DNA of 62,456 bases, filler included. It is 11 parts of 11 records of this genome, joined end to end, with 100 filler letters (N's around TTAATTAATTAA, not from the genome) between each part and the next. Parts side by side here need not be neighbours in the genome. Positions count along the whole stretch, not along the records: positions 40,214 to 51,655 come from SRR15195285_2046; 10 more parts are not named here. One strand, 5' to 3'. Both the position numbers and the translations under genes were made by a program. Of the stretch, positions 17,121 to 59,500 are shown piece by piece. Below the pieces are notes generated by a model. The model saw nothing but the letters and a program-made list of their open reading frames with translations. It was not told where the DNA came from and did not search any database. Position 1 is the first letter of the stretch, and each line of letters opens with the position of its first letter.

Positions 17121-18520
17121 GTTAGTACACAAGGGCCCACCTCGGTCCCCATTCACTTCATCACGTAATCAACATACTGTGTGTATGATTTTGACTGGCG
17201 ATTAACTCGAGGTCTTTTGTGTCCTATCAGCTAGCTAGTACCAAAGACCAGCCATGCCTTCACCTCTGACACCGGGCATAACGCGCATTATACCCAGTGT
17301 CATTGGCTACTACACATCCCTTGCAGGCCTGCGGTGTTTGAATCGATCGAGGGGACGAGATTCCATCACCAAATTCCTGCCACCAGGCACAGACGCACAA
17401 CGCTGCTACTCGCCGATGCTGGCTCATCGTCCTCGTCTTCGGCGACTTGAATGCCGGATGCGCTGGCGCGTAGCACGGCCAAGTCCCCTAGGGTGTCCAG
17501 CTGGCAGAGACGGACACGTTCGTTGGCGTAGAAACGTGTGAGGTCGAGCGTCAGATGGAAACATTTCGACCAGGCGCTTGGAAGACACACGCTGGACAAA
17601 ATATGGGACCCACCCTTCTCGTCCCTACGACGAGGGAAGACGGCGACGACAACGTGGTGGACGCGTGGTAGTAGAGGTTGAAGAAGGAAGGGAGGCGAGG
17701 CCTTATCGTTGCGATTAAGACTAACTTCTGGTGCCAATATTTTCACAGTCTGCCTCGGTCTTCCTGCATGCGTGGTCCTACTAGTGGCAATCGCAGCATC
17801 GCACCAATTCACATTCACTTTGGGTCCACGATCCCGCGGTCCAATTACCCAAATGTAGTCACACGTTCATAGTGGCAACGTGTGCAGTTCCGGTCGTTGC
17901 TGCGCGTCTTTCTTCTTCTGATCACTCTCGCACTCGTCACCCCTACAGTAGTGCATCGTATGCGCCACTACGCTTAGTAGCAACAACAACCAAGCAAATG
18001 CACATCCCGTCGGCTCTATGTCACACGACGCCGTGAACACGTCACCACANNNNNNNNNNNNNNNNNNNNNNNNNNNNNNNNNNNNNNNNNNNNTTAATTA
18101 ATTAANNNNNNNNNNNNNNNNNNNNNNNNNNNNNNNNNNNNNNNNNNNNCGCATTCCAATGAATTTCTGATTCTGATTCATCGGTCCGGGGTCCGTAGCC
18201 CCAAGGAAGCAAGGTGTAGACCATAATAGATCCAATGAATAGATCCAATTTAGAAATTGTCGGTGTCCATTTCACATGCTCCGCACCGCTCCGGCGGGTG
18301 CTTCTATTTTGCAGGCAAAAACCCCGGTAGAAACACGTAGCCCGGACGGTGGAATGCAGCACATTGTATACGTACCCGCCACGGCGCGGGCGCGGCGGGT
18401 GATATCGGCGGCCGGCGCTAGGATTCCTACGCTACGTACGTACACGAGCAGCGAGCAGGCATGCATTGCTTGTAGCGTACCCGCCGAGTACGTCGGTGCC
18501 AGTGGGCGAACTGCTACACT

Positions 18521-23921: not shown

Positions 23922-24320
23922 CGACATTTCAAGCCTACTGGTGCATCTCGAGTAACTCGAAAGTCGAAATCACGCAAGCGAACTATTTTCCTGTCGTGGA
24001 CTGCCCCGAAAGCACTTAGTACGCCGCCCCGAAATACAGTACCTTTGACTACATGTATGATGACAGTGGTATCACACGAGCTGCAAGTGCTACCACACTA
24101 GACGAGTCTAGTGTGATATCATTAGATCCATCAGATCCATCCTCCAAACTTGTAAACCCGACAGATCTGATGCGGCGAAGATCTAGTATGCTTCATTTTC
24201 AGAAAATTGAAATGGCTANNNNNNNNNNNNNNNNNNNNNNNNNNNNNNNNNNNNNNNNNNNNTTAATTAATTAANNNNNNNNNNNNNNNNNNNNNNNNNN
24301 NNNNNNNNNNNNNNNNNNTC

Positions 24321-27711: not shown

Positions 27712-27813
27712 CTNNNNNNNNNNNNNNNNNNNNNNNNNNNNNNNNNNNNNNNNNNNNTTAATTAATTAANNNNNNNNNNNNNNNNNNNNNNNNNNNNNNN
27801 NNNNNNNNNNNNN

Positions 27814-31285: not shown

Positions 31286-31537
31286 NNNNNNNNNNNNNNN
31301 NNNNNNNNNNNNNNNNNNNNNNNNNNNNNTTAATTAATTAANNNNNNNNNNNNNNNNNNNNNNNNNNNNNNNNNNNNNNNNNNNNACCGTATAATATCAA
31401 GTTGTACACGGGACTAATTCCTCGCTGTTTGACGACACGGACACGCGCGGGTGCGCCGCGGCGCGCGGCCGGCTCGCGCTCGCGCGGGCGCGCTACGTAT
31501 CGTACTAGCTAGCTAGTACGGCTACCCCCGTACCGGG

Positions 31538-35540: not shown

Positions 35541-36335
35541 ATCTATATGAGAACATGCTGTAGCCGCAGGGGGCAGAAGACACGAGGGCCAGTAACAGTT
35601 CTAGCTGTGTGCTACCTGTGTGTGCTACCTGTGCGCGCTACCCGTGTGCGTGTGTGGGCTGCTATCTTCTAGCAATACAGTTGCACTGCAGTGCACTGCC
35701 CTTCTGGAATGCCCCTCCGGGCCTGCGACCGGAGGAGCTCGTGCTCACCGGGTGAGGCCAGGCGGTGGCATCACTGCATGACACGATCGACCAACATCGC
35801 CCGCTCACAGCATGCCCCTCCCCCCCAAACCCTAAACCCTCAATAAACACCCTTCCTCCTACCCCAAACCACCCCAAACCACCCGGGCTCGATTACAACC
35901 AGACAGCAAAGTAGTATAGAGGCAGACAGACACAGACAGAGAATGACGAATGACAGAATGCCGCAGCCACTACCCTCTACAAGCAATGAATGTCACAGCC
36001 AGCCAGGCAGAGACAATACACACAGAGAGAGAGACTAGACAGACACGTTGCAGGCAAGCCGACAGACGGGAGCTCTCCATCAGCAGGTGAGGCTAGGCCA
36101 GCTGCTGGTCTGGGCAGTCCNNNNNNNNNNNNNNNNNNNNNNNNNNNNNNNNNNNNNNNNNNNNTTAATTAATTAANNNNNNNNNNNNNNNNNNNNNNNN
36201 NNNNNNNNNNNNNNNNNNNNCGCGCGGGCCGCGCGGCCGCGCGCGGCGCGACGCGTCGATGCGTACCCGCGGCCGGCGGCGTCGCAGTGCTACCGCGCGA
36301 GTGCATCGCATCAGCAGTGCGAGGGCCACCACCCG

Positions 36336-39300
36336 ATGGCTGCTGCGGTAGCAATATCCCTGCTGCTCTGCGCGCTCGCGCGCGTGCAGCCTGTGCACAG
36401 CGGCCGCTCGGGTCTGCACGCGGGCCCCAGCGAGGCGCTAGCACCGCCGTACCAAGGGCCGATGGAGATCCACCTGCTGCCGCACAGCCACCAGGACGCG
36501 GGGTTTATCGTGACGTACTCGCACGTGCGGGATCAGCTCTGCGATCGCACTTACGAGACGATTTTCGAGTGCCTGCGTGACGACCCGACGCGGACTTTCA
36601 ATGTGGTGCGATGCGCCGCCCCTCACTCCACTTTTGCTAGTGAAGAGTGACGAGCCGGGCACTCCTCATATGCAACTGGCTCGGTATAGGCAGAGGTCAA
36701 CTTCTTCTCGCATTGGTTTGACTCCAAGAACGCGTCTGTGCAAGCCGAAGTCCGGCGAATGGTGCATGCAACCAAGTGCGTAGCCAACATAGTGTGTCGT
36801 GGCACGTGGCGGCTTTTTGACGCTGTTTGAGTTTGACAGGCAGTACGGCTTCTGCGAAGGTGGGTGGGTGCAGCCTGACGAGGGCGCGACGAACTACCTC
36901 GGGAGGATTAATCAGGCAACCTTAGGCCAGGAGTGGCTGAAGGCACGGCTGGATGTCTCGCCCACCGCCGGCTGGCACATGGATCCGTTCGGAAACTCGG
37001 CGATCTCGCCGCTGCTATTCGACGGCTACGGGTTCGACGCCCACGTTGTTTCGGGCGGTCGGCTGCCTACTTACCGACTTGGCAATGTCGCGTGGGGCGC
37101 ACCATTCGGTCAGACACGCTGGCACTGGCAGCAGCAGCTGCAAAACGTTTGGCAGGGAGCCGGCGGCGCGGCAGTCATGCAGCACATTATCGAGGGCATG
37201 TACATGGAACTCAGCGGAGATCCCGACTGGCCTGGCCATGGGTGCGTGCCCCCGCCCTGTAATCATTGGTGCTACCGTAGTCCCGTAGTGCCGCCGGCTC
37301 TAATCCGTCAGAATGACACTTCGCGGCCAGGTACCTGTGGGAATCCGGCCTGCCCGCGATTGTCGCAGCTGCGCCATGGGCTAGCGAATCGGAGGCGGCC
37401 AATGCGCGGGCACAGCTGCACTCGCACCACCAGCGCAAGTTCAATGAGCCACCAGCTCTGGGAACCTCCCCGCCAGTCAACGCAACCAACCTTGCTCGAC
37501 TGTCTGTGGACCTCGTGCGCCGGGCTCGCAACAACACACAGGTGAAATTCGTGACTATTATTGACGTCAATCAAGTCGCACACTCGCAGTCTTACAAAAC
37601 TTGAGCGGGCACGTGGCTGTAATAGCTTTTTCGCAACTTGTCTTATCGCAAGTCGTGCTGTATCGTTGCAGTTCTTTCAGCCCACTGAGAACACTACACG
37701 GCCAAGGGCGATAATGCTACCATGGGGTGGAGACTGGACGTTCTCTGAGGACGCGCATATCATGTTCAGGAACATGGACCAGATCGTCAATTATATCAAC
37801 GCGCATTCAACGGAGCTCAACGCTACGATCATCTACAGCACACTAGATAAATATCTCGACATCGTCCACGGTGGGGACGAAGTGCAGAAGGCAGACCGCT
37901 CCAAGGTGACTCTTCCTGTAGTTGAGGGTACATTCATGGGAAACAACGACGACTGCTGCCAGAAGCTCTCCAATGTCAAGAAGGTGCACTCGTGTTGGAC
38001 TGGGTATTATTCATCGTTTCCGGCTCTCAAGTATGCACTGCGGAAGCTCGACACGTCACTGAGGCATGCTGAGATACTCGCGGTACTCGCAACAGCACAG
38101 GCGGCGTCGAAGGAAGCTAACTTGACGTCTGGATTAAATGGCTTTGGGGACACCTCCAAAGCGTCCGACAAATGGGAGGCAGCGTTGGGATGGGGCCGAC
38201 ATACACAAGGAATCATGCAGCACCATGATGCAATTACAGGGACAGGGGGCAGTGCATGTGATGTCGAATATCACAACATGATCAGCAACGCCACTATTCT
38301 CACCGATCAGGTTCTTGCAAATGCTACCGCCGTGCTTCTGGGTACGCATAAGCTATGTGTCTATTTTCACAACGACCAGCACATGGCTGAGGTATGCCTA
38401 CGTGGCTGAGGTATGTCTGATATATCGGTGTTTTTCGATCGACCGCAACAGGTGAGACAGAGGGTGGCCCTTTGGAGGTATACAGCATGCCCGCGGCCCC
38501 ACCATTGTCCCTGAATGACAGCTCCACAGGACCTTGCGACCCTGATCACATCTCAAGCTTCATTGACTGTCACCCGAAAGGTGGTGAAGCTGGATGGTAG
38601 GCTCCATTTTGTCATGCGCTTCTTTTAGCTGCTCTGTGGTTGACAAATGCTGCCTCGATGTTCTGTTGTACTCCCACACAGTCTGAACATGGGATGCTGC
38701 TGGACACCATCGTCGAGTCATCCATACTGCTATAAGCCGAGTTCTGCTGGACGAGCGGCTCCAACCAAAATCAGTGGTGTAGGCCAGTGGCCGACTGACG
38801 ACGGCAGTGTGCTTACGCTCGGTGACAGTGGCTCCGTCACACTGATCGCATCCAACCCACTCGCGTGGTCCCGCAACACTACCTTAGCAATCAGAGTTTA
38901 TGCTAGAAGCTCTGCGATGTCACTGACTGACTCTGGTGGCAATCATGTAAACGGACAACTCGCACCCCCCGAACCTTGGAACACCTCGCTGACTGGTCAT
39001 GGCTCGCACGTGCTGCGTCATGAGCACTGGGCTGCCTGGGCCAGCAAGCGCCCGAGTGACAGGCACGAGGTCGCAGAAGGCGAGATGGTAATGAGCCGAC
39101 TAATCATCGAAGCATCAGTCCCTGCTTTGGGAACCGCAAAATACGTTCTGCGTGATGCAGCACATGGTGGTAGCACTGCCAATGTCGCGGTATCGCAAGT
39201 GAAGGTTGGCAATGGCAAGTCTGGGTTTATCCTGAACGGGTCCAAGATCAAAGTGTCGGTGAATGCGCAGGGCCTGCTCGACAGTGCACAGCACGCGGGC

Positions 39301-39426
39301 TCCACCACACCGCCATTACCTCTGCGCCAAGACCTTGCTATGTACTGGGGTAATGGTGGGCGGGACGGGCCTTCTTGCAACGCCGACGGTTCGGGTGGAG
39401 ATGGTGGGTCTCAGAGTGACGCGTGA
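36336..39426 (+). CDS. Secreted/lysosomal-type alpha-mannosidase (GH38); multi-exon, apparently truncated at the 3-prime end
   Basis: Signal peptide, then HLLPHSHQDAGF, AEVNFFSHWF, GGWVQPDEG, GWHMDPFGNS, LPWGGDW, YSTLDKY, WTGYYSS, MQHHDAITGT and NPLAWSR. The frame stops at SQSDA, where a Y(I/V)F motif and the C-terminal domains are expected. Confidence 0.9.
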
Positions 39427-39995: not shown

Positions 39996-41098
39996 CCACG
40001 CCAGTCAGCAGCAGCAGAGGTGTGCCGATCTGTGCCCAATCACGCCGGTCAGCAGCAGAAGAGGGTGTGCAGCAGTGTGCTGCGGGACGTACGCCGGTGA
40101 CATCTGCGCGTACNNNNNNNNNNNNNNNNNNNNNNNNNNNNNNNNNNNNNNNNNNNNTTAATTAATTAANNNNNNNNNNNNNNNNNNNNNNNNNNNNNNN
40201 NNNNNNNNNNNNNATCGGTACTTCGGCCCCCGATCCACGGCCGGTGTGACTACTAGTACTATCAATTCTATCGTACTATGTAGTAGTACCTGTGGCATCT
40301 GGTAAGGCAATCATAAAATGCGGTACAGTTGTAGTATCCTATTCGACCTACCAGTACTGTACTCTGGAGTACTAGTATGGCTACTATTTATAGTATAAGT
40401 GTTGAGCAGTTGCCGGTGAAGCCTGAATCTCCACCAGTGCGGCCTGGGTGCGTGTAGATCTACTCTGTCATGTACTGTACTCGTCCTGTACTGGTACACA
40501 GTACGAGTCCAGTACTGTACTGCAGTATACTGTACTAGCTAGTACTCGTCACTCGTCAGCAGTCTCAAGTCTGATCGCTACTCTGAGATCTAGCTAGCTA
40601 GTAGGATCCTACTGGTACAGTACTCAGTAGTACACTGTACAGCTGTACCTGTAGAGCTGTAGAGCAGTGCTCTGACGAGCTGACGTGGATTGGAATGGCC
40701 GATGCCCGGGATGGCAAGCGCGTGGGCTACGTTCGCTGTGCTGCCTCACGAACTCTACATCGCCCGTAGCTCTGCTATCCACGGCCAAGAGCTGACGCAC
40801 CATGTGCCCAGTAGCTAGGCCAGGGCAAACTTGATGCAGCAGGAGCTGGGCTGCCGCATGTCGATGTTTGCCAACACGGGCAACCCGTAGTGGTCAGCAC
40901 GTACGCAACAGCGGTGGCTCAAGCGTAGACCTGCGGTGTATGAACTTGTGCACACCGATGTAAACCTCTGCCCTCGCTGCATGTGCGATCCACCGAAGAC
41001 GCGCAGTATGCGGGCGCTGTAGCTGCGCGGGACCAGCAGAGAAGGTGTTGCGAAGCGAGCAGCGGTGATTCGCAGGTATAGCGCGGCACACTGAAATT

Positions 41099-44000
41099 AT
41101 GGACTTCGACTCGATACCTCACGAGAGGGCGCCGGCACGCTCACTGGCGCGCTCAATGGATTTCGACGTGGGAATGGAGTCCGGGATGACAAGGGCACAA
41201 GCCGCGGACGTAGATCGTATCAACACAGGAGCTGCGGCTGCAGACGATTCACAGATAGAACAGATCCGGAACCTGTTTGCCGAAGCTGATGCAGATGGGA
41301 CTGGGGATTTAGATGTACAGGAGCTCGGGCGGGTGATCGAGCAGCTGGGAATGAAGCTTTCTCATGAGCAACTCCACGATGCCATGGGCATCTTAGATTC
41401 TGACAGCACAGGCGCAGTTTCTATGGCGAACTTCATAGAGTGGTGGATGGCGCATCATGGGAGCGGCAAGGACCAGGAAGAAGCAAGAGAACGCGCACGC
41501 GCTGCGTTCGAGGCTGTTGATGTGGACGGAGGAGGCACCATTGACGCCAGTGAACTCGCGGCATTGGCCGACAACCTTGGTCTAACGCTGTCGGAGAGCG
41601 AGTTGGCGGATGCTCTACAGGAGATGGACGCGGACGGCAGCGGCGAGATAGACATCCAGGAATTCATGGAGTGGTACATTAGCGGTGGGTCAGGATCCTC
41701 GTCTGCATTGGCTATGGGCGTTGGACTCGGGGCTCTCGGTGAACTTGGCCTTGTGGGAACGGCAGACGACATGAACCTATTTGCCGCTGCCAACGACGAC
41801 GACGATGACTCAGAAGATGAGTTTGATGCCGCAGCGGCAGCTGGCGAAATGTTTAACGATCTCATGGCAGCCTCAATGGGGGGCAGCAAGGAAATGCTGG
41901 GGCTGTCGCTCGGAATGTTTACACCAGACAACAGCTTTCGTGTCGCGTTGTCGAGAATCGTGTTCCACCCAGTAACAGAAGTTGGCATTGTAGCTAGCAT
42001 TGTTATCAATGTGGTGGCACTGCTTTTCCAGGAGCCAGGATCTGACCAGATTGAGGTAGTTTCTTTCATCAATTTTGTGTGCGGGCTGATATTCACGACC
42101 GAAATGGTGTTGCGCATCATCGTGCATGGGTTTTTCAGACACGAGGGCTCTTACTTGCGGAATGGTTGGAATGCGCTAGATTGTGTCATCGTGCTCACAT
42201 ACTGGGCTATTTATATCACATCGATATACACGAGTGTCGACAGCTCTCTGTCATCGTGCGCGACATTGCTGCGGTCGTTTCGTCTCCTTCGCTTTTTTGG
42301 TGGAGTGCGTGAAGTGCTCAGCGCTCTTGCGCAGGGCAGTTCGATGATCCTTACAGTTTCTGCTGTAATGCTGTTCTTATTTGTAGCTTTCTCGACGAGC
42401 TCACGGATGCTGTTTGGTGGCGTGCTTATGAACCGCTGTGCAGTAGACGATCCAGTTCAACGGGCTCTGGACTGTCCGTTGTGTGGAGACGAGAGGCAGA
42501 CATCAGTAGTTGGGTCCAGTGAAGCCGGTCGATGCCCGACAGTCCTAGAGTGCGGCTCCAAGAATCTGTCGTGTTTCGAGTACACACCAGATCTTGCGTA
42601 CACGTACACAAATCAGTCAAACTATGCGACTCCAAGGAGACTGGACCATATCGACAAATTTGGCTTCGGAGGGCTATTCGAAAGCTTGCTGTCCGTCTAT
42701 ACCATATCAACACTGGACGAGTGGGGCTACCTTTGCAATATGTACCGGTCCTCAGATTCGTCAACCTCGTTCCTCGCTTGGCCGGTCTTTGCTGCACTGA
42801 CCGTTCTGCTTGCACTTTTCGCGACAAACGTCTTCGTCGCAAGTGTGACCATTGCGTACATGTCTGTGCGGACGGGGGCACGTGACGATAATGCCCTAGA
42901 CGGAATTCGCGACATGGTGATGGCCAATCTGGAAAATCAGGAAGGCCAAGATGACGATGCAAACGATGGGAACGGCAGCCCCAAACGACTTGATGACGAC
43001 TGGTCTGACGACGAGGATCTAATTGCAGAAGACGATCTTACAGAAGAGCAGCTGCGCACGGACCACTGCCTTGCCACGTGCTGCAAGTACGGTCCCGTGC
43101 TGACTGAAAAATCACAAGTCATCATCACGGACAAGCGCTTTGACAATTTCATTATGGCAACAGTTTTAGTAAATATCGTCCTCATGGCTTCAGAGCATCA
43201 TATGATGCCGCAGTGGTACGTGAATGTGCTTGCCACGATCGAGGTTATCTTCACTACCGTGTACACATTTGAGGTGGCCGTTAAACTGCAGGGCATGGGA
43301 TGGCGGCGGTACTTCCGAAGCTGGATGAACCGGCTTGACTTTACTATTGTTTTCGTCGCTCATGCTGGTACCATTCTCACATACTTTGGTGAAGGTATGG
43401 ATGCTTCTTCATCGCAGAGTTTACGGATTGTCAAGGTTCTCGCTCGTCTTGCGCGCCTGATGCGTGTGGCTCGTGTAGGGAAGCTAATTTCTCGCGTGAA
43501 GAGTATCCGGACGGTGTTGAAGGTGGCGTTCGGCTCGATCCATGCGATTGCTTCGCTTTCGTTTTTGTTCATCTTTGTATGCTTCGTAGCGGCTACGATG
43601 GGCACGTTCCTCTTTTGGGAGTGCCACTCTAACCCAGATGGCTCACCACGTCGAACGGAACTAAATGGAATGAGCCTGGGCTCGCTTCGCGACTCGTTCT
43701 TTGCAGTGTTTCAGCTCGCGACAGGCGACGACTGGTCAGGATTGATGTTCGAGTACATGGAATGCTACGGCAATGGTGCTGCGCTGTACTTTGTGGTGGT
43801 CGTTTTTGTTACACAGTATCTGCTGCTGAACCTCTATATATCTGTATTCCTGGAAAACTTCCAGCTCAATGACGAGCAGAAGCGTCAGCGGCAGATTGAG
43901 CAATTCACGAAGCGTGAACTTGCAAAAATGGATTTGACTGAAGAGGGTGCGGCTCGTGCCACCATCTCAATAGCCAGCGCCACACTTAACAGGGCCAGCC

Positions 44001-47000
44001 CGATGGCTCGACTGAATCTAGATGTCACCATGTTGAGCTCGTCTCACTCGGATGATAATGCGAGTACAGTGGATCCAAACGGCAACGCCGACACAGCACA
44101 GCATCAAGGAGACTCAGATGACATGGAGGATCCAAATGCAGGTGTGGACTCGGCCGAAAGAGTAGAGCCAAATGTCGCTCTCAGTCTTTTCTCTGAGAAC
44201 CATCCATTTCGCCAGCTCATGATCAGGCTGGTGGAATCTGACGGCTTCGACAAAGTTATTGTGTTATGCATTGCACTAAGTGGTATGCATATTGCTCTCG
44301 AAGGACCAGACACGTACGAAACCTCGGGGCTTCCTGACTGGTTTCAAGCTGCAATGGCGGTGCTTGACGGGGTCCTATTCATTACTTTTTGGGTAGAGCT
44401 GCTGTGCAAGCTCATCGCGTATGGCTTCTGGAAACATCCAGACTCCTATCTGAAGCGGTCAAATTCAAACTTACTCGACTTTACAGTGGTACTGGCAACA
44501 AGTGTCGACGTGGTGCTCGCACTGATGGGTTTTTCCAGTTCGGCAAAGTTGTTTCGATTGCTGCGAGTGCTGCGGTTGGTGCGTTTGTTGCTGATTATCG
44601 ATGGAATGCAGGTAATCTTATACACGCTGTTGAAGGCTTTGCCATCGGTGTCAGCAATCTTGGCTTTGCAAGCTTCCACCTTCTTGGTTTTTGGGATCCT
44701 TGGAATCAACATGTTTTCTGGGCAGTACTACCGATGCGTAGAAGATATCAAGCTGGATCGTGTGCAATGTGAAGCGTCGGCACTGACGTGGAAGCAATAC
44801 GAGTTCAATTTCGATGATATATTTGAAGCAATGGCATCTCTCTTTGTGTGCATGACAATTGAAGGGTGGGTACAAGTGATGCGAATCGGCATGGACACAC
44901 CCTCCGGGAGCTGTGTGGACTGTGCACCGGTGCCAGACTACAGCGCCAGTGTCGCGTTTGCGTATTTCTCCAGTTTTATGGTGGTAAACGCATTCATGCT
45001 GGACAAGCTCTTTGTTGGACTTTTAGTGGACTTTTTCCAGCAGGAGAGCGGGTCTGCACTTATGACGTCTGAACAAAAGAACTGGCGGTTTATGGAGGTG
45101 ATGGCAATGCACATCGTCGACGTCGACCGCAGACCGCCAACAAACAGCAGGTGGCGAGAGGAGTGCTTCAGTCTGGCTCAATCAAGCACGTTTACATCCT
45201 TGGTCAACGTTTTCATCTTGCTCGATGTGACATCAGTGGTTGTTGGCGACAATGAGAACGTGCCTCAGATGCTGACCGATATTTTTTGGGTTGTAAATGA
45301 GACCACAATGGTAGTTTACACCTATGAGGCACTCGTTAGAATTGGCGCATACAGCTGGAGTGGGTACATATCGACTGACAAAACGCCATTTGTGATTGTA
45401 CTCATCATGTGGCTCATGACAATTCATTACAAGCTCAAGCAATTTGACTCATTTGACCCTGCTGGCTACTTCGACTGGATTCAAGGGCTCTCATTTGTTA
45501 TGATCTTACGGATGACCCGCCTCCTGTCTGCTTCCACGCAGATCCGAAAGCTGCTGAAACTACTTTGGATATCGATGCCGCAAGTTCTGAATCTGGTCAC
45601 AATCATGGTTCTCCAGTTTTTCATTTTCGGCATCTTGGGCATGAAATTGTACTTACTCCATTTATGCAGAATGCGTGCACCAAACGAGTCAATTTCGCAC
45701 TGTTGCGCACCCACTAACAGCACGCTGTGCATGATTTATGTCCGTAGGTACGGTCAGGTTCCTCTTGATGGGACAGATATCAAGACGCACGAACTGAACG
45801 AGTACAGCAACTTTCGTTCAGTTCCCTCCGCAATGATGCTTATGTTTCAGGTGGCCACAGGGCAGCCAATTCTAAAAATTGTTGAAGAGATCAAGTCTAC
45901 TGTCGGTGGCCACCCGTTTGTGTTCTTCGCTACATTCTACATCTTCTGTAATATGGTTCTACTGAACCTGTTCACCGCGTTGTTGATGGACAACCTCGAT
46001 CTGATGGGTGCAAGCGACTTTGGCATTACGGATGATGATGTTAGATGGTTCCACAAACGCTGGCATGACTTCGGGCTGTACGTATCCGATGAAATTGAGA
46101 TGAAGGATCTCAGAGGATTTGTCGCCGGTATTGGGCGGTCGTTTGGCGTAGTGACTGCCGCAGACAGGCACTGGTACAAGCGACTGTTGCTCGACCTGGA
46201 CGTGCCGCCGGACGAGATGGACGGCACTTCCACCCGCTCATTCAGTTTTCACCGGGTTCTGCTGTGCCTCTGTCATCTGCGGTTCAATTCAGCCTGTTTG
46301 CCGTACGAGCAGGAGGTCGCCGAGGCTGCTAAGTCTGCACATATGGCAAAAGAGCACGGTGCACGTGTGATAATGATCTTCTGGCGTGCGTATCAATCAA
46401 AACGGAACATGCCAGATGATTTGCAGGCAAGTGAACCCTCGTGGAAGCTGGCTGTGGAGTGCGCGCGGATGCTGTCGTTGGATACTGTCAACCGTGTCTT
46501 TAAATTGAGCAACATCGAAGTGGTGGAGAAGAAAACAAGCAATCTTGCGACTGCAATGGAACTGATGTCAGGATGGTCCGGGCCTGAGATTGAGGGCGAA
46601 GAAGACGGCAAGGTACAGTTGGACGAGCTGGGCGATGAGCACCTCGAAAAACTGGCAGAGGGTGACGCAGAAGCACACGAAATGTTACTTGCACGCATGG
46701 AAGAGATTCACCAACAGCGGATCAAGGTGTCCGGGGGTATTGGGACGTGGTGCGTTGGTGGAAAACTAGTTGGCAAGCCCTTTGAAATCGCGCAAAAGTT
46801 CGTTCTGTCCTTGGTCCTACCAGTTGTGGTGTACGCACTCTTCTACGTTCTCATCCAGATCATCGGGGAGCATCACATGTAAGAGATCACGGATACTCCT
46901 TGCCGTGCTCATAAACGACTCAATGGAGTGGAATGGTTCTAACACAAGTGATCTCTGTCTGCTGCTGTTGCCTCTGCTTGTGGACGCAGGAATGTGTTCA

Positions 47001-50000
47001 GTCCAGCGTTCTTAATCCTTGTCATATTTCCCACGGCGAGTTACATTGGATGCTGCTATATCGTTGCACAGTACTTCTTAGTGCCGTCTTTATTCTCCGC
47101 GCGGCGACAAATGCTAATGTTCAGTTCGTGGGCTGGGATAGCGAACTATGGCGCGATTCTTTACGGGCTCACAGACGAAGGGCGACAGTACTGCCAGTAT
47201 CTAGCAGTGCTCAATAATTCGGCGTACGTAACACAAATGTCCTGGCAGGTCACAGCAACGTACACTGCATTCAGATTTGTAGCGCTTGACAAGTTGCGGG
47301 TGAAAGGACCATGGCGGGTGCTGTTGCACGTTTTCAATTGGGGGGGAGGTTTTTTAATGACCCTCGGTCTGTTCCATCTGAAGCGCGAGGCTTTCCATGA
47401 AAGCCTAGACGAACTGAACGGTCTCGGCTGGTGCGGAGTGAGGGGTGATCCAGAATTCATGTACTGGAAGCTGTTCTTCATCCTCATTCCACAGCTGATA
47501 GGCGTCTCGGTCTACGCATTCTGCTTTTCGTACATTATTGATGTGGTTGACCCACCTGAGACAACAGTGATGCGGCGGTCAGCAGACGATTCACGCGTCA
47601 GTACGAGTCATCATGAAGACCTGCTACACGCTAGCACTGCCAAGCAAGCAGTGGCAATGGCTCGTGCTGCAGATCGTATCAAGCTGTACTTGACAGGGTT
47701 CATGCTTAGCTATCTGACAAACACGCTTCTGACCATTTTCTTGGAGCGGGAGAAGAGAGACGATGAATGGACGACATTTGACTACTTAATCTGTGCGGCT
47801 GTTGTGACACCGCAGCAGGCATTATACGCTCGCGTTTTCAATAGTGGTGGCAACAGCGGTATTGTGTCTAGTCTGGCAAGCTTCCACAAATCATCGATGG
47901 TTTCAACGTCTGGTTCAGTGGTGTCTAGCATCAACAGCATGGCAACGTCGTATAGATGGGTGCAGGTGCTGCAGGCGAGCGTGGTAGGGCAGACAGTGAC
48001 AGTCCAGGTAAAATCTTCAGTCACTTTAGCCACATCTGCTTTCGAAGGGACTTTACATGAGGCGAGTCGGAAGACAAACCAGGCGGTACAAGCTAAACCG
48101 AAGAACCCCTGGGCAGATCACACGGCTGTTGTGTTCGTGATGTCTTACGTGCGGATGGTCTTCCAGTGGGTGTTCAACATTTGGCAGGCATGTGTGATGG
48201 TCCCTGTTTCTCTGTGGGTCTGGACTCCAATTGAGTTCATCAAGGAAAATTTTTCAACCGAGCCTATCAAGGTAATGGCGTCACTGCTTGCATACGGTCT
48301 CTTCTTGCTGGTGCCAATTTTCTACTTCAGGACAAATGAAGGAGAGGATGGCAGCTTTGCCAATACCACCATTTTCGAGCCCGTCCAGCAGGAGGATCTG
48401 TGGGACAGACGCGCAAATGGCCCTGTCGGCGTATTCAGCTACATGGTAACGATCTTCCTCATTGGTATCGCTGGTATGTACGTCAACCGGTTTAGTTTTC
48501 ACTTGCTCGTCATTGACGGACCGCGCGATACCATGCGCATGACCAAGAAGAATGGCCTTGGAGTGTACACCCTGGCAGTGGAGTGGATGCAGGTAGCCAT
48601 GATTGCCGTCACCGCATGTGGGCTTGTGCAACGATACCGTAACAGCACTTCAGACAACTCTGAAGACGAGCTTTCGCTTCGACAGCTGATCATTGGGCTT
48701 ATTCTGGACAACGTCTTCTACATGCAATACTGGGCATCCTTGTTCGCAGTCGTGGTCTGGGCGTCCTGTTATGCAGGACCTAACATCGTGGAGAAGCTCT
48801 ACTCGCGGAAACGAGCGAAAGCGTTGCAGCGCAAATTTGGTGTGATCTATGTCGTGCTGTCGGGACCTGGGTTCTTGACAATCATGAAGTCGTTGATGAA
48901 ACCGTTATTCTGTACCTACTCTGGATCAGATATCCAAAGCAGTGTAGTTCTGAAATTCTATTTTGTGTCCATTCTCGTTCTAAACCGCGCATGTGCTGGC
49001 TGTGGCAGGCATCTATGATCCAACTTCATATGCATTCCCAGTTGCAATCGCTGACAAGGACCTTCAGTGCTGGACTCAGGAGCACCTGAACATTGTCTGG
49101 CCTGCACTTTGTGCTCTGTGCGTCTACTTCCCGTCTGCAACTCTTACAACGGCGATTAAGTACTCGCCGGAAGAGGATATTCGATATGTGTTCTTGTACA
49201 ATCGCTTGGAGTTGATTACGAAAGGTCTAATGCTGTTCTTGTCCTTGAGCTATGCAAATGAGCCCATAATTGGACTCTTCTGCCTACTGCTTGGATCGTG
49301 CGTCGTCATCATGGCGCTCCACTACATGAGACCGAGTTGTCAAAAGCTTGCAATGCGATGGAAGTATTTCGTACACTGCAGTAATATCTGGACGTGCTTG
49401 ACATGTATCGGTGCACTGCACTTTCAGATTGATCACACCAACTGGCAGTACCACTTGCAAGCAGCCGGTGCCGGGTGGGGAGCAATCTTCATATTATGGA
49501 GCTTGAATATCTGGCGCAACGAACAGCAGGACGTAATGAACGCACCGGTAGACGAGCCGACAACTAGTGCGCGCGCATGCAGGGAGATTGATCAGCTGCG
49601 GCACGATATCGGTTATGTAACTGGGCCACCAGCGTGGGGCAAGCACGCCTTGATCCTTCGTTTGCTTGAGTTTGCGGCACACGAAAGTTTGACTGTTCGA
49701 GTTCGCGCGTTTGAGTCGCTGGCTGTGCTGTCATATTGGGACCACATCACGTCGGAGGCATTCTTCATTGAGATGACGCCAAACACAGCAATGCTGCTGG
49801 TGATCAATGCCATTACCACAGAGCAAGACCAAACTCTCCTCATCTTTGCAATTCGCGTTCTTGGTGCCTTTGTTCGTGCAGAGCTGCACATCAAAGAGCT
49901 AAGCAGATTTATAGAACAGGACAATGGCGTGAACTTACCACAGAGCATTGCCAAGCTGGCGTGTTCTACATGTCGCCGTGAGTCACAAGTGGACTGCATG

Positions 50001-51655
50001 CAGACTATCTTGGCAATCACGTACGTGGACAGCAACACACTCGATGCTGTCGCAGAGCACTGCATACCAATGCTCGCAGAATGGGCACAGAAGGGCTCGC
50101 TCATTGAGCAGCATCTTGCAGCTGAGATATTCATGCTGATCTCTGGTCGCTTTGACCATACATCCGAGCTGATCGCACAAGGAGCGCTGCCAAAACTGGT
50201 GTCTCTGTTCATGTCGGTCGATGACATCGAGGTTAACCCTAAGTCTCTCAAGGTAAACAGATCCACTGGTTTCAGGTCTGGCTGTTTACAGCCAGAACGT
50301 GCGGTGGTGATGGCGCATCAGGTGCCACACAATTTGCGCCAAGCTTTCCAGCGGATTTACCCACGTGTGAAGCACATTTACCACGAAAAGGATGATGAGT
50401 CGTACGAGCAAACTGCGCACAGGGCAGACCGGCGGGAGTGGGGTGCCTGGGTAAACTCTGGTATGCCGCTGGCGATAGAAATCAAACAAAAACTGACGGC
50501 GCGGGAATTCGAAGGTGTCTCGAGGGTCAAGTCTGCGGGAGTAACGCGCCAGCATTTGAACGAACTGTTCGATATCATGTACAATGGTAGCGATGCTGGC
50601 TCGTCGAATCTCACTGAGGGGACACTGGATGGTAGGACAATAGCCACGTTTCTTTCTGGCTATGGTCTGGGTGACACAGATGATATTGAGAAGGTCTTAT
50701 ATGACACTGGTATCTACCAGCATGGTATCGGCGAAGTTGATGACAACGACATGCAAGAAGAACTGCCACGGGAGCTGTTTTGCCGCTGGTTGCTCATGTC
50801 TATGCCCGACACGGATGCTTTGATGCAGGGCCAGGAAGTTGACATGGGCTCTCTCGCACTCCGTGTTCTGCAAGAGTGCATGCCACACTCACGCGATGCT
50901 GATTGTGACACTACTCTGCTGAAGCGTGATGTAGAAAGCTTTTACGATGAGATGCAGAGCGCATGCTCCACTGGGGAGAACCCTGAAGCCAAGGAGATAG
51001 TACTGTGTATAAGCCACGTTGCTCGATATCTCGTGGAGAGCAAACAGTTGGGCATTGGTACGTGTGATGAGGTGGAGAGTGCCATGACGATTGAAATCAC
51101 CGCAGGCGAGGCTGATGTTGACGCGCATGTGCAGCTCAGTACATTGCAGCTCCAAATTATGAAGGACGAGATTACCAAAGCGACAGTCCACACATTGACA
51201 GAGATAGCCATGGCTCAGGGTGCGCAAGGACGCGCAGATATGGTTGATGGTGGTGTCCTTGTAATTATTTCGCGATGTTTCAAGCTGTTCAAGCCACCGG
51301 AAGTGCACGCCCTCGCCTTGAATATGCTACACGCACTCATGAACGGCCGCTTTTCTGAGAAAGATATAGCTCACGATGCCGACCTGATTGGCTTCTTCAG
51401 CGAGATCAACGAGTACAAGGCGCAGCTAGAACGGGATGAGAATGCGTCGCCACTTTTGAGATTCGAAGGGCTCACTGCGCTTGAGCGTCGAAAAGCACAC
51501 ATGATGGCAGCTTTCCTTGGCATGTACCATCGATCGATCGGTTCTCCCGTCAACCGCAAGGTGATTGTCTCGCAGATGCCTATCACCGAGGACATAATTT
51601 GGCAGGTCGTTCGTGCGGATACAGACGATGACGAGGTCGATGACGAGGTCGATGA
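41099..51655 (+). CDS. Giant fusion protein: 4 EF-hands + four-domain voltage-gated cation channel + IQ + cAMP-receptor-like 7TM + second TM bundle + ARM-like repeats + R3H; 4 exons, more than 3416 aa, 3-prime partial
   Basis: Exons 41099-45648, 45748-46878, 46990-48911 and 49009-51655 splice in frame through GT-AG introns of 99, 111 and 97 bp. Four S4/pore repeats have P-loops TLDEW, TGDDW, TIEGW and TGQPI. The channel identity is near certain; fusion across the introns is predicted. The start may be at 41156 or 41174. Confidence 0.85.
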
Positions 51656-51974
51656 NNNNNNNNNNNNNNNNNNNNNNNNNNNNNNNNNNNNNNNNNNNNT
51701 TAATTAATTAANNNNNNNNNNNNNNNNNNNNNNNNNNNNNNNNNNNNNNNNNNNNATTCGCATCTCTTCTGCCGAAGGGTTAACTCTAATTGAATAAACG
51801 AGGGTGGATTATCAGGTGTGCACGAACAGGTCAGTGAGGTCATGAGAACACCGGTGCGAGCGGCGACGGTGGGCGCGGGGCGGAGGCAGCTGGGCAGCTG
51901 GACGGGAAGCCGGGCACGCAAGGCTGCTGGCACGCAAGGCTGCCGAGGGGGGTGGTCGGCCCGCAGCTGGCGAG

Positions 51975-54190
51975 ATGTCCGGGGTACGCGCCGGTGCACA
52001 GCTGGACGGCCTTGCGTGTGGTTTGGTGTGTGTGCGTGTGCTGACTCTCGGATCGTGTGCAGTGTGACCTCTCGCAGCTGGAGGACGCGGTGGAGCAATG
52101 CGCAGAGCTTATGGGCGGCAGCACGAGCTGCGAGGAGCTGGGGGAGGGTATAGTGGAGGAATCAGCGGTGCGTGGCGCGCGTGCTCTACCTGTGCCAGTG
52201 GCGAAGCTGCTGTGCGGTGCATTTGGATGTATCAAATGTTGCCGTGCCACAGGCGCTTGCTCATCCACTCACGTGCTCGCTCACGTGCAACAGGAGGCCC
52301 TGGAGGAGGAGGCGATCTTGCTGCACTACGGCTTCTTTCTCATGACACTGATGTTGACGCTTGGGGTACGTGCTGGTGTTCAGACATGCACCTCGATCCC
52401 TTCGATGCGTGCGACTGACATTGCTGTGCTCGCGAACACGCCGCGTGCAGTTTCTCGGCGGATACGTCTTGGAGAAAAAGCACTTCACGTACATCCACGA
52501 GGCTGGCGGCCACCTACTTATTGGGGTGTTCTGTGGGCTGGTCCTAAACCTTCAGTTCGGTCACTCGCACGAGAGCAAGACAGAGCGGCAGCACGAAATG
52601 ATCAATGTTGCGCGATTCGATACAGAATTCTTCTTCCTGTTGCTGCTCCCACCTATCATCTTTGAGGCTGGGTACAACATGCAGCGTCGCAAGTTTTTCT
52701 CCAACATCGGCGCAATCTGTATGTATGCTTTTGTGGGCACCTCCATTTCAACCATCCTCATCGCCGGGACTGTGTATCTCTTCAGCCAAGCATCTGGAAA
52801 GGACGGTGTCTTCGCAGCTACCTCAGACGGAGAACCGTTCAATGGACTCGAGTCACTGATATTTGGTGCTCTGATTTCAGCCACAGACCCTGTGACGGTT
52901 CTGGCGGTGTTTGGCGCCATGGGTGCCGACTTGAACCTCTTCAGCTTGGTATTCGGCGAGAGTGTGATGAACGATGCTGTTGCTATCGTGCTGTACAAAG
53001 CCCTCGATGGCTTCAACCCGTCCAGGTGTGGAGATTCTTGTGAGGTGACGGGCTCGTCCATCACGGCCGCTTTCGCGAACTTCATCTACATTTTTGTCGG
53101 CTCGGTTGTTGTAGGGACCGCGATTGGGCTCATTTCAGCGCTTCTATACAAACATGCAACGATGTACGAGGAGGATTTTGAGCATATCGAGATGATTCTC
53201 TTGGTGTTGTTTCCGTACATGTCATGGATGATGGCGGAGGCCTTGCAGCTCAGTGGCATTGTTTCTATTCTGTTCTGCGGTATTCTGATGGCACATTACA
53301 CTACGCACAACCTGTCGCCGGAAACAGAACTGTTCTCGCGGCGCTTCTTCAAGACCATGGCATTCGGATGCGAGTCTTTCGTTTTCATCTACATGGGCCT
53401 GGCAACATTCACCTACGAGCAAGACTGGGACCATTGGCCTATCATCGTCGTGGCCATTATTGCAATTTTGGTGTCGCGCGTGTTCAACGTCTACCCGAAT
53501 AGCTATATGGTCAATCTGTATCGCTCAGAAGAGAAGAAGGTTCCTATGTCTTTTCAGCACATCATGTGGTTTTCGGGCCTCCGTGGCGCAATTGCTTTTG
53601 CACTGGGCCTTGAGGCGGCAGAAGGATATGCGGTTCGGGCTGATACTGACTCGCCGGGCGCAGGGCTGTGTATACTCACCATGACGTTGAGCATCGTTAT
53701 ATTTACGGTATTGGCGATGGGCGGGTCTGTGTACACGGTGCTGAACTACTTTGATACTCCAGAATGCTCAGTGTTTGAGGGGCCGCCGGCTGTCGAGAGC
53801 GCAGATGATGGAGGGAAGTCTGCTGCTGACGACAGCAAGGCGCTTGGGTTTGACCGTAAATGGTTTAAGCCATTTTTCACGTGGCGATACCAGGACGAGA
53901 CGAAGACTACTGCATCAGAGAGGTGTGTCACATCCCCTGTTAGCGTGGCTCGTCTTTCTCGTCTACATGGCGTGAAAACACCTTCCCTCCTGCTCGATTT
54001 TTCGTGTCCACTTGATCATGCAGTACACTGTGTACATTGCAGGGATCCACGCTGGTCGTCAACAAATAAATCCGGTGATATTAACCGCAGCCATAGTCAC
54101 GGCAAACCGGAAGCAACGGCGCGCCCTGTCGGTGATGGAAACCCCGAGTCTGAGGGCGAGACGCAAAGCCTCCTTACGACAAGTGTCTGA
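51975..54190 (+). CDS. Na+/H+ exchanger, CPA1 family (NHE8/NHX-like); 5 exons
   Basis: Motifs FFFLLLLPPIIFEAGY, FGALISATDPVTVL, VFGESVMNDAVAIVL and WFSGLRGAIAFAL. Predicted exons 51975-51983, 52063-52167, 52294-52365, 52451-53922 and 54043-54190 are all in phase. Confidence 0.93.
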
Positions 54191-56167: not shown

Positions 56168-56523
56168 TGCCGCCACGGCCCGCAGCTTCGCTAGCTAGAG
56201 CTAGGAATCCTACTCGGTAGTGTAAACGCGTGCCCGCGCAGGGGTTTTCGTAGCGATCGATTGGCACACGTTGAAGGTAGCGGCGTGCTGGCACCAGTGC
56301 TCGATCGCCTGTGGTCCATCGCTTACCATCGCTCCATCCGCGGACGCGCGGAGTGTGCATATATAGCTGCATACTGATTCCCGGCATGACAACATGATTT
56401 CGCGGGAAAAGCGGAAACCAGCANNNNNNNNNNNNNNNNNNNNNNNNNNNNNNNNNNNNNNNNNNNNTTAATTAATTAANNNNNNNNNNNNNNNNNNNNN
56501 NNNNNNNNNNNNNNNNNNNNNNN

Positions 56524-59500
56524 TCCTGTGCCTTAGCTCTGGTAGATTCCTGTTCCTGTCGCGCTTTCTTGTGTCGCGCTTGACGCAGCATCTGTACCTG
56601 CTCGTTGTGCACCACAATCTCCGCCTGCACATGCACGGTGCACTTGTCAGACTGAAGGTATTCTGCAGAGCCCGTGCTTGTCATCAAGCAAATTCATGCG
56701 ACCCAGAGCTGACTTACATGTGTGTAGAGTGCTGAGACTGCAACCGGGAAGCTACTCCAGGCACCTTTGTTCCAACACATCCATTCATCTGCAACTGGTA
56801 TCTCTCCGTCTGTTTCGCAGTAAGCCACAGCAGTAGTGCTGCCCTTCGCAGACAGGTGCCACTCGCGGTCACCGACACAGCGAAACAGCACTTTGCCGTC
56901 TACAGAGCTCCAGCGCGGCCATCCATCCACTGCCCCATCTGGCAAATACACGGTGTTGAAATCGACTTTCGGCACGCCTTCGACAAAGACACCTACCGTT
57001 CCTTCGAATTGATGCGCTGCCATGCGACGCTCCTCGTCTTCGTTGCCAGTTCTCTGTTTCCGCGCCTTCTTCGTCGTCTTCTTCTTCTTCGCGGCTTTCA
57101 GTTTCTCCCGCTGCATCTCTGCGTTCTTAGCGCGCCGCTCAGCAGCTTTAGCAGCTTTGAAAGCGGCATTCATAGCTCTCGCGCGAAGTTGTGCTGTCTG
57201 TCGCCGGCCCAGGTATCCACGGAACAACGACTGAATATTAGTGGCGGCAGTAAATTGCTCAGCATTTGCACGCTCTTCCGCTTCCAACCGGGCGGTCTCC
57301 GCTGCCTCCTGAGCCGCTTGCAGCGCTGCCTCTTCCTGATCTGCACGTTTCTTGCTAGCAACAACTTCTGCTCGTAAAGCTTTAAACCACGCTCTCATGA
57401 GGATAAGTGCGTACGAAGACAAAACTTCCTGTGAGTGTGAGGCAACAGCGGACGCCTCCTCGTGAAACGATGCAAGCTCCTGGTCCAATGAGTTTAACGT
57501 CATCGCCTTTGCAAAAGACTTCACGGCCGCATCGTAATCGCCACGTTCCATCTGGTTGTGCCCTGACCTTTTCAGCACAGCAGCAGTCCAGTATTGCTCA
57601 GCCTGCTCCTGTGCAGCTCGGATTTTTGTGTTCTTTGGATCTAAGTCCCGAGCCTTAGCCAGCGCGTGAGCAGCTTCCTTGAACTTCCCTCCCGTAAGCA
57701 AAGTATGTGCATCATCAAGTAGCATCGGTACACGGCAGCGTCTTTCCACCTTGTCACGGGATTTTCTATAGCGCATATGATCTGGCACGAGCTCTGATAC
57801 TTTTTCCCAAGCCGCAAGAGCTCCTGCGTAATCTGACCTTGCTTCCAACTCGCGACCCCTTTTCGCCCATTGCGATGCTTCATGTTGGCGTTTCCTTCTC
57901 TCCTCGATCTGTGCAACTCGATCAAGCGCTTCCTGGCCAGCGACGACTACAGCTTTGTCCTTCGCATAGCTCAGCTCGAACTCTTCCTGCTCAGCTGTGG
58001 ACCACTGAACCGGCTCGCTATCATCACCTTCGTCTTCTTCTTCGTCCTCGTCCTCTTCATCTTCGGCCTCGTCTTCCTCCTCTTCATCCGTCTCGGGAAG
58101 CCCTGCCATAGCTGTTGTCAAACCGAAGTCGGGACACCGGATGTAGACCGTTTCGTCCCATTCGTACGGAAGATTCACAACATAACCAGGCTTGCCAGCA
58201 AATGCAGCACCATCTCTCGACCAGGAACCGAGGGCATCGCAGACTCGCCACTTTGCACGCAGCTCATCATAAGTTGCTACTTCGACGTCCATCCCAACTA
58301 TGCACGTGTCCCTGGCGAGCTGTACACCGGCTGCTGTGAGCGAAGCGATGGGAACCCAGCCCTCAAGAAGCTCAACTTCCTCCTCAGATGAAGAAGGTAT
58401 TTCTGCAACTGGGTCACTAGCGTACACGGCCCGGTACCTAGGACGCTGCACTGACGGCAGCAGCTCGCCAAACCAGTTGAGTACAGCATCTTCCTCTTGT
58501 CGACACCACTCGGGGAGTGGAGTTATCAGCTTGATTGACTGGTGAGCATGTTCACCCAACGTGGGTACTCCGGGCTGAAGAGACTCTAGCAGGTCACGAG
58601 CAGCTTTCTCCTTGTCTTCCAGACCCGCTATGGTGGCAGAAACTTCTGATATCTCGGTTTCCAGCCTCGTCACTGCCATCGTGAATGCTTCCAATTGTGT
58701 CAGTGTCTCGTCGGCATCCGTGGTGGGCATTAGTAGTCCTTCAGCACCAAGCCGCAAGAGTTTCTCGCCGTACTCTCGCAGAAACCAAGTACTGAATTCC
58801 TCAAAATCAATTTCGTTGTTTCCATTGGTATCCACTGCAGCAAAGACCTCAGCAATATCCATGGATTTAACCTTCTCCTCACCTTCGAGGACCAGAAGTA
58901 CAGCCAGCAACTCGCTGTGGTCCAGCACGCCGTCCTCGTTGCCGTCCATTTGTTTCCACACCATTTGTAGCAGCGACATTTGTGTGCTTTGGAGCTCTTT
59001 TTGAACATCTCCTTTTGGCCTCAATGCTTCCAGTTGTGCCGTAATCTCATTTTTCTTAGCCGACGCCATATCCAAGTCCGCAGTTAGTGCAGACACTCTT
59101 TCGTCCGCCGCTAGCACTTCTATTTCCGTCTGCGCAACTGCGGCTCGCGCAGCGTCCAGGTCGGCTTGCATCTTTGCAATCTCTTCTGGTGACCCCAACT
59201 GCACTGCTTCCAGGTCCTTCTTCAGTTGTTCAGCGCTCGCAACCACCTCCTCATGGGTTCGAAGCGCTGACAATTTGGCGGTAGCGTCAGCGTGTTGCTT
59301 GGTCACACTATCTCGCTCACTTGTTTGTTTTTCAAGCATTACCTCGACGGCAGGCAGCGCCGCCTCCAGCTCACCAAGTCGTTTTCTAACCGTCGCAATC
59401 TCTTCTTTCATCTTGGCAATGGTCTCTGGTGACCCTACTTCAATCTGAGCCATGGCGTCCTCGTAAGCCTTGTGTTGCTCTTCCAACGCCAAGCGCAGCC

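Follow-up and report, generated by a model that had tools for sequence, protein, structure and literature searches.

A predicted four-domain cation channel with a D/D/E/Q filter, from a clade whose fourth pore loop is mostly neutral and without its tryptophan

The stretch of DNA considered here (the window; 62,456 nucleotides (nt), filler included) carries, on one of the contigs of which it is composed, a gene that is open for more than 10 kb and whose product is a predicted four-domain channel with an Asp, Asp, Glu and Gln (D/D/E/Q) selectivity filter in domains I to IV. In the unspliced DNA the channel is seen as an open reading frame (ORF; P0001) of 1,927 residues at 41099..46882, with which the four filter codons are all in frame. 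Its product has four stretches matching Pfam Ion_trans (PF00520, E 1.8e-132), and it matches solved Cav and Nav chains over their full length. Downstream the gene continues, after splicing, into a module resembling G protein-coupled receptors (GPCRs), and upstream of the channel domains it encodes a calmodulin-like region. The coordinates of these features are collected in Table 1.

The filter codons lie exactly where a first-pass annotation of this DNA had put them, and its reading of D/D/E/Q as the filter survives alignment of the pore loops, which leaves the positions unshifted. D540, D877, E1255 and Q1589 fall on the filter glutamates of Cav channels by three methods, namely MAFFT with Cav1.1, Nav, NALCN and fungal Cch1-like rows, hmmalign with 192 proteins, and phmmer against solved Cav1.2 and Cav1.3 chains. 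With the last of these 'mlmfqvatgq' stands opposite 'lllfrcatge', which puts the Gln on the domain IV Glu of Cav1.2 and Cav1.3. One place above the ring the residues are, from domain I to domain IV, Glu, Asp, Gly and Pro. Two places on from the Gln, Ile takes the position of the pore Trp in domain IV, a loss of Trp that the first-pass annotation had also recorded. The pore-loop pattern T-x-[D/E]-x-W is accordingly fitted by domains I to III (TLDEW, TGDDW and TIEGW) and not by the TGQPI of domain IV; TGQPI being a trait of a clade, it is to be taken as marking a variant and not as excluding the protein from the superfamily.

Table 1. Features of the channel gene, in positions of the window
Feature	Position	Strand	Description
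Contig with the gene	40214..51655	+	one of eleven contigs chained by N44-TTAATTAATTAA-N44 linkers
Exon 1	41099..45648	+	start codon, EF-hands, domains I-III, domain IV S1-S5; collinear with P0002 and P0003
Calmodulin-like N-terminal region	41246..41677	+	residues 50-193; two EF-hand pairs; Pfam EF-hand_7, E 9.7e-22, two stretches
Domain I	41936..42865	+	residues 280-589; filter codon GAC 42716..42718 = D540 in ISTLDEW
Domain II	43139..43864	+	residues 681-922; filter codon GAC 43727..43729 = D877 in ATGDDW, Asp at +1
Domain III	44246..45043	+	residues 1050-1315; filter codon GAA 44861..44863 = E1255 in MTIEGW
III-IV linker motif GSALMTSEQKNW	45050..45085	+	includes ALMT, three hydrophobic residues and T
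Domain IV	45194..46006	+	residues 1366-1636 in unspliced numbering; split by intron 1
Domain IV S4 and start of S4-S5 linker	45485..45565	+	two Arg in the helix (ILRMTRLL); S3 acid replaced by Pro (DKTPFVIV)
Intron 1	45649..45747	+	99 nt, GTACTT...ACTAAC...GTAG; in frame, without stop; ACTAAC branch-like site
Exon 2	45748..46878	+	domain IV pore loop, S6, cytoplasmic C-terminal domain, extra transmembrane helix
Domain IV filter codon	45863..45865	+	CAG = Gln in ATGQPI; Q1589 unspliced, Q1556 spliced
Extra hydrophobic helix FVLSLVLPVVVYALFYVLI	46799..46855	+	hydropathy 2.69; conserved in P0003; just before the exon 2/3 junction
Intron 2	46879..46989	+	111 nt, GTAAGA...CGCAG; contains an apparent stop codon; excision keeps the frame
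Exon 3	46990..48911	+	seven-helix GPCR-like module (46991..47890), then about six further hydrophobic helices
Intron 3	48912..49008	+	97 nt, GT..AG; shifts the frame by one; P0003 collinear
Exon 4	49009..51655	+	further helices followed by a soluble part, R3H matched below threshold; frame not closed at the contig end

The ORF at 41099..46882 does not correspond to the mature protein, as three GT..AG introns split the gene. The first would code for 33 residues, inserted after S5 of domain IV and ahead of the pore loop, and this insert is missing from P0002, P0003 and all other aligned channel rows; the fragment P0044 ends at the left border of the intron and the match to P0046 restarts at the right one. 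With its removal Q1589 becomes Q1556 in the mature protein, and part of the extent given to domain IV in the first-pass annotation is intron-coded. Excision of intron 2 fuses the channel in frame to the next ORF, across a junction at which P0003 and P0046 are continuous, and for the third intron splicing is seen in an RNA-library contig (X16) that joins 48911 to 49009 with 116 nt on either side. P0003, 44-46% identical, is by tblastn collinear with the window from domain II over both later junctions, and P0046 likewise runs on from domain IV into the downstream module. After splicing the frame has no stop over 3,416 codons and has not closed by the contig end, past which (51655) a DNA contig of X1 extends.

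RNA contigs in this context are assemblies from RNA libraries that possibly hold DNA or pre-mRNA, and for introns 1 and 2 they neither confirm nor exclude splicing; bins without cover are uninformative. Two of them, at 46889-47263 (X14) and 46905-47250 (X15), begin within intron 2 and enter exon 3, and another from X15 ends at 46876. Such ends around intron 2 could reflect intron retention, pre-mRNA, library DNA or breaks of the assembly graph at a splice site. A further joint in an X14 RNA-library contig, skipping 199 nt of the I-II linker (42930-43130), was rejected, its ends being GG..CG and not GT..AG and its shorter side 26 nt; it is probably foreign, repeat-derived or an artefact. At the end of the contig (51600-51655) a 12-nt unit encoding Asp, Glu and Val is repeated, and one or two extra units are present behind 51625 in other runs, so the length of this acidic repeat varies. 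Upstream of the gene, 40214-40700 is dense in short repeats of the GTACTG/TAGTAC type.

The nearest relative, P0002 (67-75% identical, partial), has both the D/D/E/Q filter and the same GQPI. Among other close relatives the filter is D/D/E in P0045, which then ends, -/D/E/T in P0003 and -/-/-/M in P0046, so that three carboxylates are fixed, with differing uncharged residues at the fourth place. Domain IV had earlier been termed degenerate. Its departures in filter, Trp and S4 are real, but the term overstates them, since identity to P0002 is 70% in the domain IV sensor and 80-85% in the domain IV pore as against 78-87% in the other domains; by this comparison the conservation of domain IV falls little short of that of the others. 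The chance that domain IV is an artefact, either an error of sequencing or assembly or a pseudogene in decay, is of relevance here because the ORF holds a 33-residue stretch missing from relatives and has its stop codon directly before further coding sequence. Both oddities are, however, explained by the GT..AG introns of 99 and 111 nt, GQPI is shared with P0002, and the frame is open over thousands of codons once spliced. Part of the stretch is also present in 19 runs from 14 studies (the best holder among DNA runs may be the source sample), and the Gln codon is covered, with no difference listed, by a 6,112-nt DNA contig of X1 and by an X15 RNA-library contig (45763..45931). With a non-canonical domain IV found clade-wide as well, error or decay is hardly credible.

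To gather relatives, 1.84 billion cluster representatives were searched with domains III-IV and the C-terminal domain, and the best 150 of 7,037 hits (E <= 1e-3) were kept. At the domain IV filter place these and the window have E in 94 rows, Q in 20, D in 18, T in 3 and M in 3, with six other residues present once each and 7 rows not aligned at that place. FastTree analysis of 157 rows and 1,200 columns, obtained from the 192 proteins by dropping 17 near-duplicate vertebrate rows (P0007, 9, 10, 12-14, 18, 19, 21, 23-29, 41) and 18 fragments, places the window within a clade of 25 rows (support 99). The domain IV residue in the 24 clade rows that have this domain is Q in 15, T in 2, M in 2, N, K and H in 1 each and E in 2, it being missing from the 25th row. 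It is thus non-acidic in 22 of 24, in comparison with 7 of 132 rows outside the clade (125/132 being acidic). Trp at +2 of domain IV is retained by 5/24 clade rows and by 130/132 outside rows, and domain I has Asp in 20 of the 23 clade rows with a domain I. In these alignments, then, a neutral, Trp-less domain IV is a strongly enriched trait of the clade and not a one-off.

Placement of the clade relative to Cav, Nav, NALCN and Cch1, which the first-pass annotation had advocated establishing, was approached with two further models. Under LG+G4 (IQ-TREE, 61 rows and 982 columns) support by the Shimodaira-Hasegawa-like approximate likelihood ratio test (SH-aLRT) is 99 for the clade of 23 rows, 100 for a Cav/Nav/other group of 33 rows and 99 for NALCN with the Cch1-like rows; under LG+C20+F+G4 (52 rows and 879 columns) it is 100 for the clade, then of 20 rows, 100 for the Cav/Nav/other group of 27 rows and 98 for NALCN with the Cch1-like rows. 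The trees consequently point to a separate branch (99-100) outside the Cav/Nav group, on the side of NALCN/Cch1 and of an E/E/E/E row, P0086. The order among these three has a support of 58 in a tree that is unrooted, and the rows were picked by similarity to the query, which biases the sampling. The Cav1 rows P0011, P0143 and P0173 and the Nav rows P0016 and P0039 fall in the other major group. Filter and placement agree in this respect: D/D/E/Q is neither the E/E/E/E of Cav1/Cav2 nor the E/E/D/D of Cav3, it differs from the D/E/K/A or D/E/E/A of Nav in its domain II Asp and domain IV Gln, and the protein is placed with none of these. NALCN (E/E/K/E, E/K/E/E) and Cch1 (a neutral domain I followed by E/E/E) do not fit by filter.

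As to the organisms involved, Picozoa sp. appears in EukProt accessions for 6 of 20 clusters checked (P0047, P0048, P0055, P0058, P0060 and P0182), and no other organism name was found among the 20. P0002 and P0005 have labels in the same style as the Picozoa EukProt accessions, and the rest are marine metagenome proteins. A scan of metagenome contigs for DNA of close relatives confirmed 0 of 462 pattern matches, and a second yielded five loci (L001-L005) at 27-30% identity that were not used.

A fourth domain so altered raises the issue of whether the pore conducts well at all, or whether the four-domain body is mainly a voltage or Ca2+ sensor, or a scaffold for C-terminal modules. Pertinent to this are the absence from domain IV of an acidic residue and of a Trp so widely kept outside the clade, the Pro that follows the Gln, the drift of the filter place between Q, T and M in close relatives, and the additional membrane and soluble domains, over 1,500 residues in all, that the protein carries. 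Such a reading is nevertheless distinctly improbable, given the strict retention of D/D/E and Trp in domains I to III of close relatives and an identity to P0002 of 80-85% in the domain IV pore loop and S6. In addition, DEEA, DEES and DEET pores, in which the domain IV residue is small and neutral, are listed as calcium- or non-selective in parts of PMC6259924.

The voltage sensors are unequal. As the first-pass annotation had it, the S4 of domain IV has about two Arg and domains II and III are strongly charged; the S4-region Lys and Arg number 4 in domain I, 10 in domain II and 5 in domain III, and the S3 Asp is kept in all three. The two domain IV Arg sit at the R3 and K4 places of Cav. Elsewhere the charges of this segment are 5-6 in Cav rows and 2-3 in sister subclades, and NALCN rows have 2-3 Lys or Arg in the S4 of domain II and 3 in that of domain IV, whereas the window is charge-poor in domain IV alone. 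The S3 Asp of domain IV is replaced by Pro in the window and P0002 and by Ala in P0003; the acid is kept in P0047, P0050 and P0053, and the full WN.xD motif is present in a D/E/E/Q subclade.

The linker between domains III and IV, ESGSALMTSEQKNW, aligns best with NALCN NKGTALLTVDQRRW and with Cch1-like rows, the counterparts of its motif being KGTALLTVDQRRW in NALCN and SGTAYLTAEQRRW in Cch1-like rows. Its ALMT stands opposite the IFVT of the Nav-type row P0039, which we take, following the paper on the ancestral linker motif, to be the place of the Nav IFM motif. Three hydrophobic residues followed by T or S are a widespread and ancestral motif here, NALCN included, according to the text of Pozdnyakov et al. 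2018 (PMC5824947). The first-pass annotation's assignment of the linker to the NALCN/Cch1 type consequently holds as to closeness, but its opposition to Nav IFM was a false contrast; as ALMT fits the ancestral motif, the linker backs the position in the tree and not a mechanistic difference from Nav.

Ahead of domain I the protein is calmodulin-like, with calmodulin chains of the Protein Data Bank matching residues 43-192 (E 2.4e-24). Of 24 other clade proteins scanned with Pfam, 12 likewise have EF-hands ahead of the channel (in P0056, one of the 12, below the cut-off), several of the rest being N-terminally cut. In P0148, a clade member of 2,534 residues, the four-domain channel is preceded by EF-hands and by a whole adenylate kinase domain (Pfam ADK, E 1.8e-47), a further unusual fusion. 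In the C-terminal region, ARVIMIFWRAYQSKR has the appearance of a basic amphipathic helix and does not align cleanly with the IQ motif of Cav1.1.

The fused receptor of the first-pass annotation is supported by predicted helices, by feature matches and by modest fold matches, as a seven-helix GPCR-like module. The first 284 residues of exon 3 are predicted to form seven helices, in a model whose predicted local distance difference test score (pLDDT) is 53.9 and predicted TM-score 0.52. All 50 matches listed by Foldseek for it are GPCRs (E 1.2e-3 to 6e-3, TM-score 0.39-0.54), as are all 50 listed by VIA-align (Z 12.2-13.8 over 202-237 residues, root-mean-square deviation 3.5-4.9), a Z under about 13 being common for helical bundles. 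Language-model features give 0.93 against clusters of cAMP-receptor-like and family-2 GPCRs, and no Pfam family is matched up to E 10 in the window or five relatives. On balance the module is probably GPCR-like, and the additional hydrophobic helix before the exon 2/3 junction would, on the topology predicted, put its N-terminus outside the cell, which is the correct orientation for a GPCR. A model of the full exon 3 product (640 residues) is unusable at pLDDT 41. Exon 4 encodes additional hydrophobic helices, after which come some 700 soluble residues, with R3H as sole match (25.3 bits against a cut-off of 26.8) and no usable Atlas match. This C-terminal extension is limited to near relatives, P0003, P0046 and the fragments P0245-P0250, and is not in the wider clade; a word-based search for homologues of exon 3, outside whose scope lay the 'longer' length class, gave 7 proteins, all close relatives, and no standalone or distant family.

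Taken together, the tree, the linker, the sensors and the fusion allow for a NALCN-like channel that is largely insensitive to voltage, either a leak or receptor-operated, in which the seven-helix module or Ca2+ on the EF-hands gates and the S4 charges only modulate. The clade does lie outside Cav/Nav and beside NALCN/Cch1 with a similar III-IV linker, its sensor IV in the window has two Arg and no S3 acid, the GPCR-like module is covalently attached in the window, P0003 and P0046, and a single charge-poor S4 is equated with voltage insensitivity in the text of PMC5824947. What makes this unlikely is that sensors I to III, with 4, 10 and 5 charges and their S3 Asp, are unlike those of NALCN rows (2-3 in domain II, 3 in domain IV). 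The branching order of the clade, NALCN/Cch1 and P0086 moreover has a support of only 58, most clade members have the neutral domain IV without a seven-helix module, and the GPCR assignment comes from a low-confidence model and has no Pfam match behind it. Full charge in sensors I to III likewise argues against voltage insensitivity, in answer to the earlier suggestion of reduced voltage dependence. On the further suggestion, that the filter suits control by the fused receptor, the neutral domain IV is far older than the fusion, and the filter hence did not arise as a fit to the receptor.

The reading preferred, at a probability of about 60% and by analogy with known channels, is that the gene encodes a functional four-domain cation channel particular to its lineage, in a small marine protist, and that this channel is voltage-gated, permeable to Ca2+ and not selective for Na+. 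What the sequences show is which residues are present, how far they are conserved, the clade and the layout of the gene, whereas selectivity, gating and regulation are inferred. The pore would be lined by Asp, Asp and Glu of domains I to III and the uncharged Gln of domain IV, and one place above this ring stand Glu in domain I and Asp in domain II. Selectivity for Na+ is tied in the literature to a Lys in domain II or III, and Asp above the ring is linked in parts of PMC10120453 to Ca2+ selectivity or Ca2+ block. By published rules, acidic residues in domains I to III, a ring free of Lys and a domain II Asp placed above that ring predict a pore that is calcium- or non-selective, so that Ca2+ would pass and Na+ would not be selected. 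Sensors I to III look intact and would most likely open the channel; sensor IV, having lost most of its charges, probably gives no gating drive and may be retired or re-purposed. The calmodulin-like N-terminus could provide built-in Ca2+ feedback, and the C-terminal seven-helix module may add ligand input.

Several points weigh against this reading. Selectivity and gating are assigned to the clade from animal channels, and the text of PMC5824947 has it that a swap of one filter residue can alter selectivity unpredictably, that loops beyond the filter matter, and that even one charge-poor S4 is to be taken as voltage insensitivity. The loss of Trp together with Pro at +1 could also distort the domain IV pore beyond what is apparent from the primary structure. 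At the level of the gene, no RNA contig joins 45648 to 45748 across intron 1 or 46878 to 46990 across intron 2, and two RNA-library contigs retain 85-101 nt of the latter. A more elaborate form of the preferred reading is tentative and clearly less likely than not: a self-contained signalling machine of more than 3,400 residues, in which a calmodulin-like sensor, a three-carboxylate pore with a silenced fourth voltage sensor and a GPCR-like receptor, tethered by the extra helix, might be combined, with ligand at the receptor gating Ca2+ entry by direct action on domain IV and the C-terminal domain and without G proteins. The protein would then be a Cav-type channel operated by a receptor.

The other contigs of the window are separated by ten N44-TTAATTAATTAA-N44 linkers (6008-6107, 13687-13786, 18050-18149, 24219-24318, 27714-27813, 31286-31385, 36121-36220, 40114-40213, 51656-51755 and 56424-56523), and since eleven separate contigs are placed end to end, genes on either side of a linker need not be genomic neighbours. 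On the contig preceding that of the channel, fragments of the N-terminal and middle domains of a GH38 alpha-mannosidase lie in successive frames at 36793-39426, the gene being probably intron-split. Other contigs encode a Na+/H+ exchanger (52358-54187, + strand; Pfam, E 1e-65) and a 1,786-residue protein with dynein-stalk, EF-hand and TPR matches (56697-62054, - strand).

Picozoa are tiny marine heterotrophs, uncultured or barely cultured, that swim with abrupt jumps, and a large family of EF-hand-fused channels is a candidate trigger for this type of motion. From animal work, a ring of four acids or DEKA, together with a Trp in each pore loop, have come to be near-universal rules for four-domain channels. 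The clade breaks both in domain IV yet is constrained, which makes it a natural test of the extent to which a single pore loop may diverge from the other three. If a pore of D/D/E plus a neutral residue is Ca2+-permeable, the logic of Nav2 DEEA would extend to an unrelated lineage. The place of the clade beside NALCN/Cch1 bears on the nature of the ancestor of this branch, itself poorly understood. Covalent attachment of a GPCR-like module would, if true, be a new coupling of a receptor to a Cav-type pore.

Unusual filters and a charge-poor S4 in protist four-domain channels are as such already known, to go by the text of PMC5824947. Searches of the literature gave no relevant match for a selectivity filter of D/D/E/Q, DEEQ or DDQQ type, none for a Picozoa voltage-gated channel and none for a fusion of four-domain channel, GPCR and EF-hands in protists; within the library searched, neither the clade nor its neutral domain IV without Trp, the EF-hand fusions or the seven-helix fusion was found in print, Figure 3 and the supplements of PMC5824947 being outside the scope of that statement. 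The protist channels described in the text of that paper resemble the window in having four Ion_trans repeats per chain and lineage-specific clades with unusual filters (D/D/K/D, A/G/K/E, D/D/D/D, E/Q/D/E and T/E/N/D are named), in clades with one charge-poor S4, and in a III-IV linker motif of three hydrophobic residues and T or S. They differ in that no domain IV Gln is among the filters named in the text, though Figure 3 or the supplements may list similar ones, and neither loss of the domain IV Trp nor EF-hand or seven-helix fusions are described there.

Among solved structures the best match is to Cav3 (7wli, E 3.1e-103), which shares with the window Asp in the filter. Cav3-like rows are unlike it in having E/E/D/D, Trp in all four loops and a place in another part of the tree, and Cav3 lacks EF-hand and seven-helix fusions. 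Closer in terms of the ring is Nav2, whose D/E/E/A likewise combines three carboxylates with a neutral domain IV residue and is described in parts of PMC6259924 as not Na+-selective. There the fourth place of Nav2-type channels varies between A, G, S and T, as it does between Q, T and M in relatives of the window. The similarity does not reflect shared descent, Nav rows being inside the Cav/Nav group; domain II has Glu in Nav2 and Asp in the window, and the Nav2-type D/E/E/A row P0016 keeps the domain IV Trp where the window has Ile. NALCN and Cch1 are on the same side as the clade of the best-supported deep split, with a similar III-IV linker and a charge-poor domain IV S4. Cch1-like rows, too, have one neutral filter residue, but in domain I (Q/E/E/E, N/E/E/E) and not in domain IV, and NALCN rows have a filter Lys (E/E/K/E, E/K/E/E), whereas the window has no Lys and sensors I to III are fully charged. 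The clade is a branch separate from both (SH-aLRT 99-100), with a support of 58 for a sister relation.

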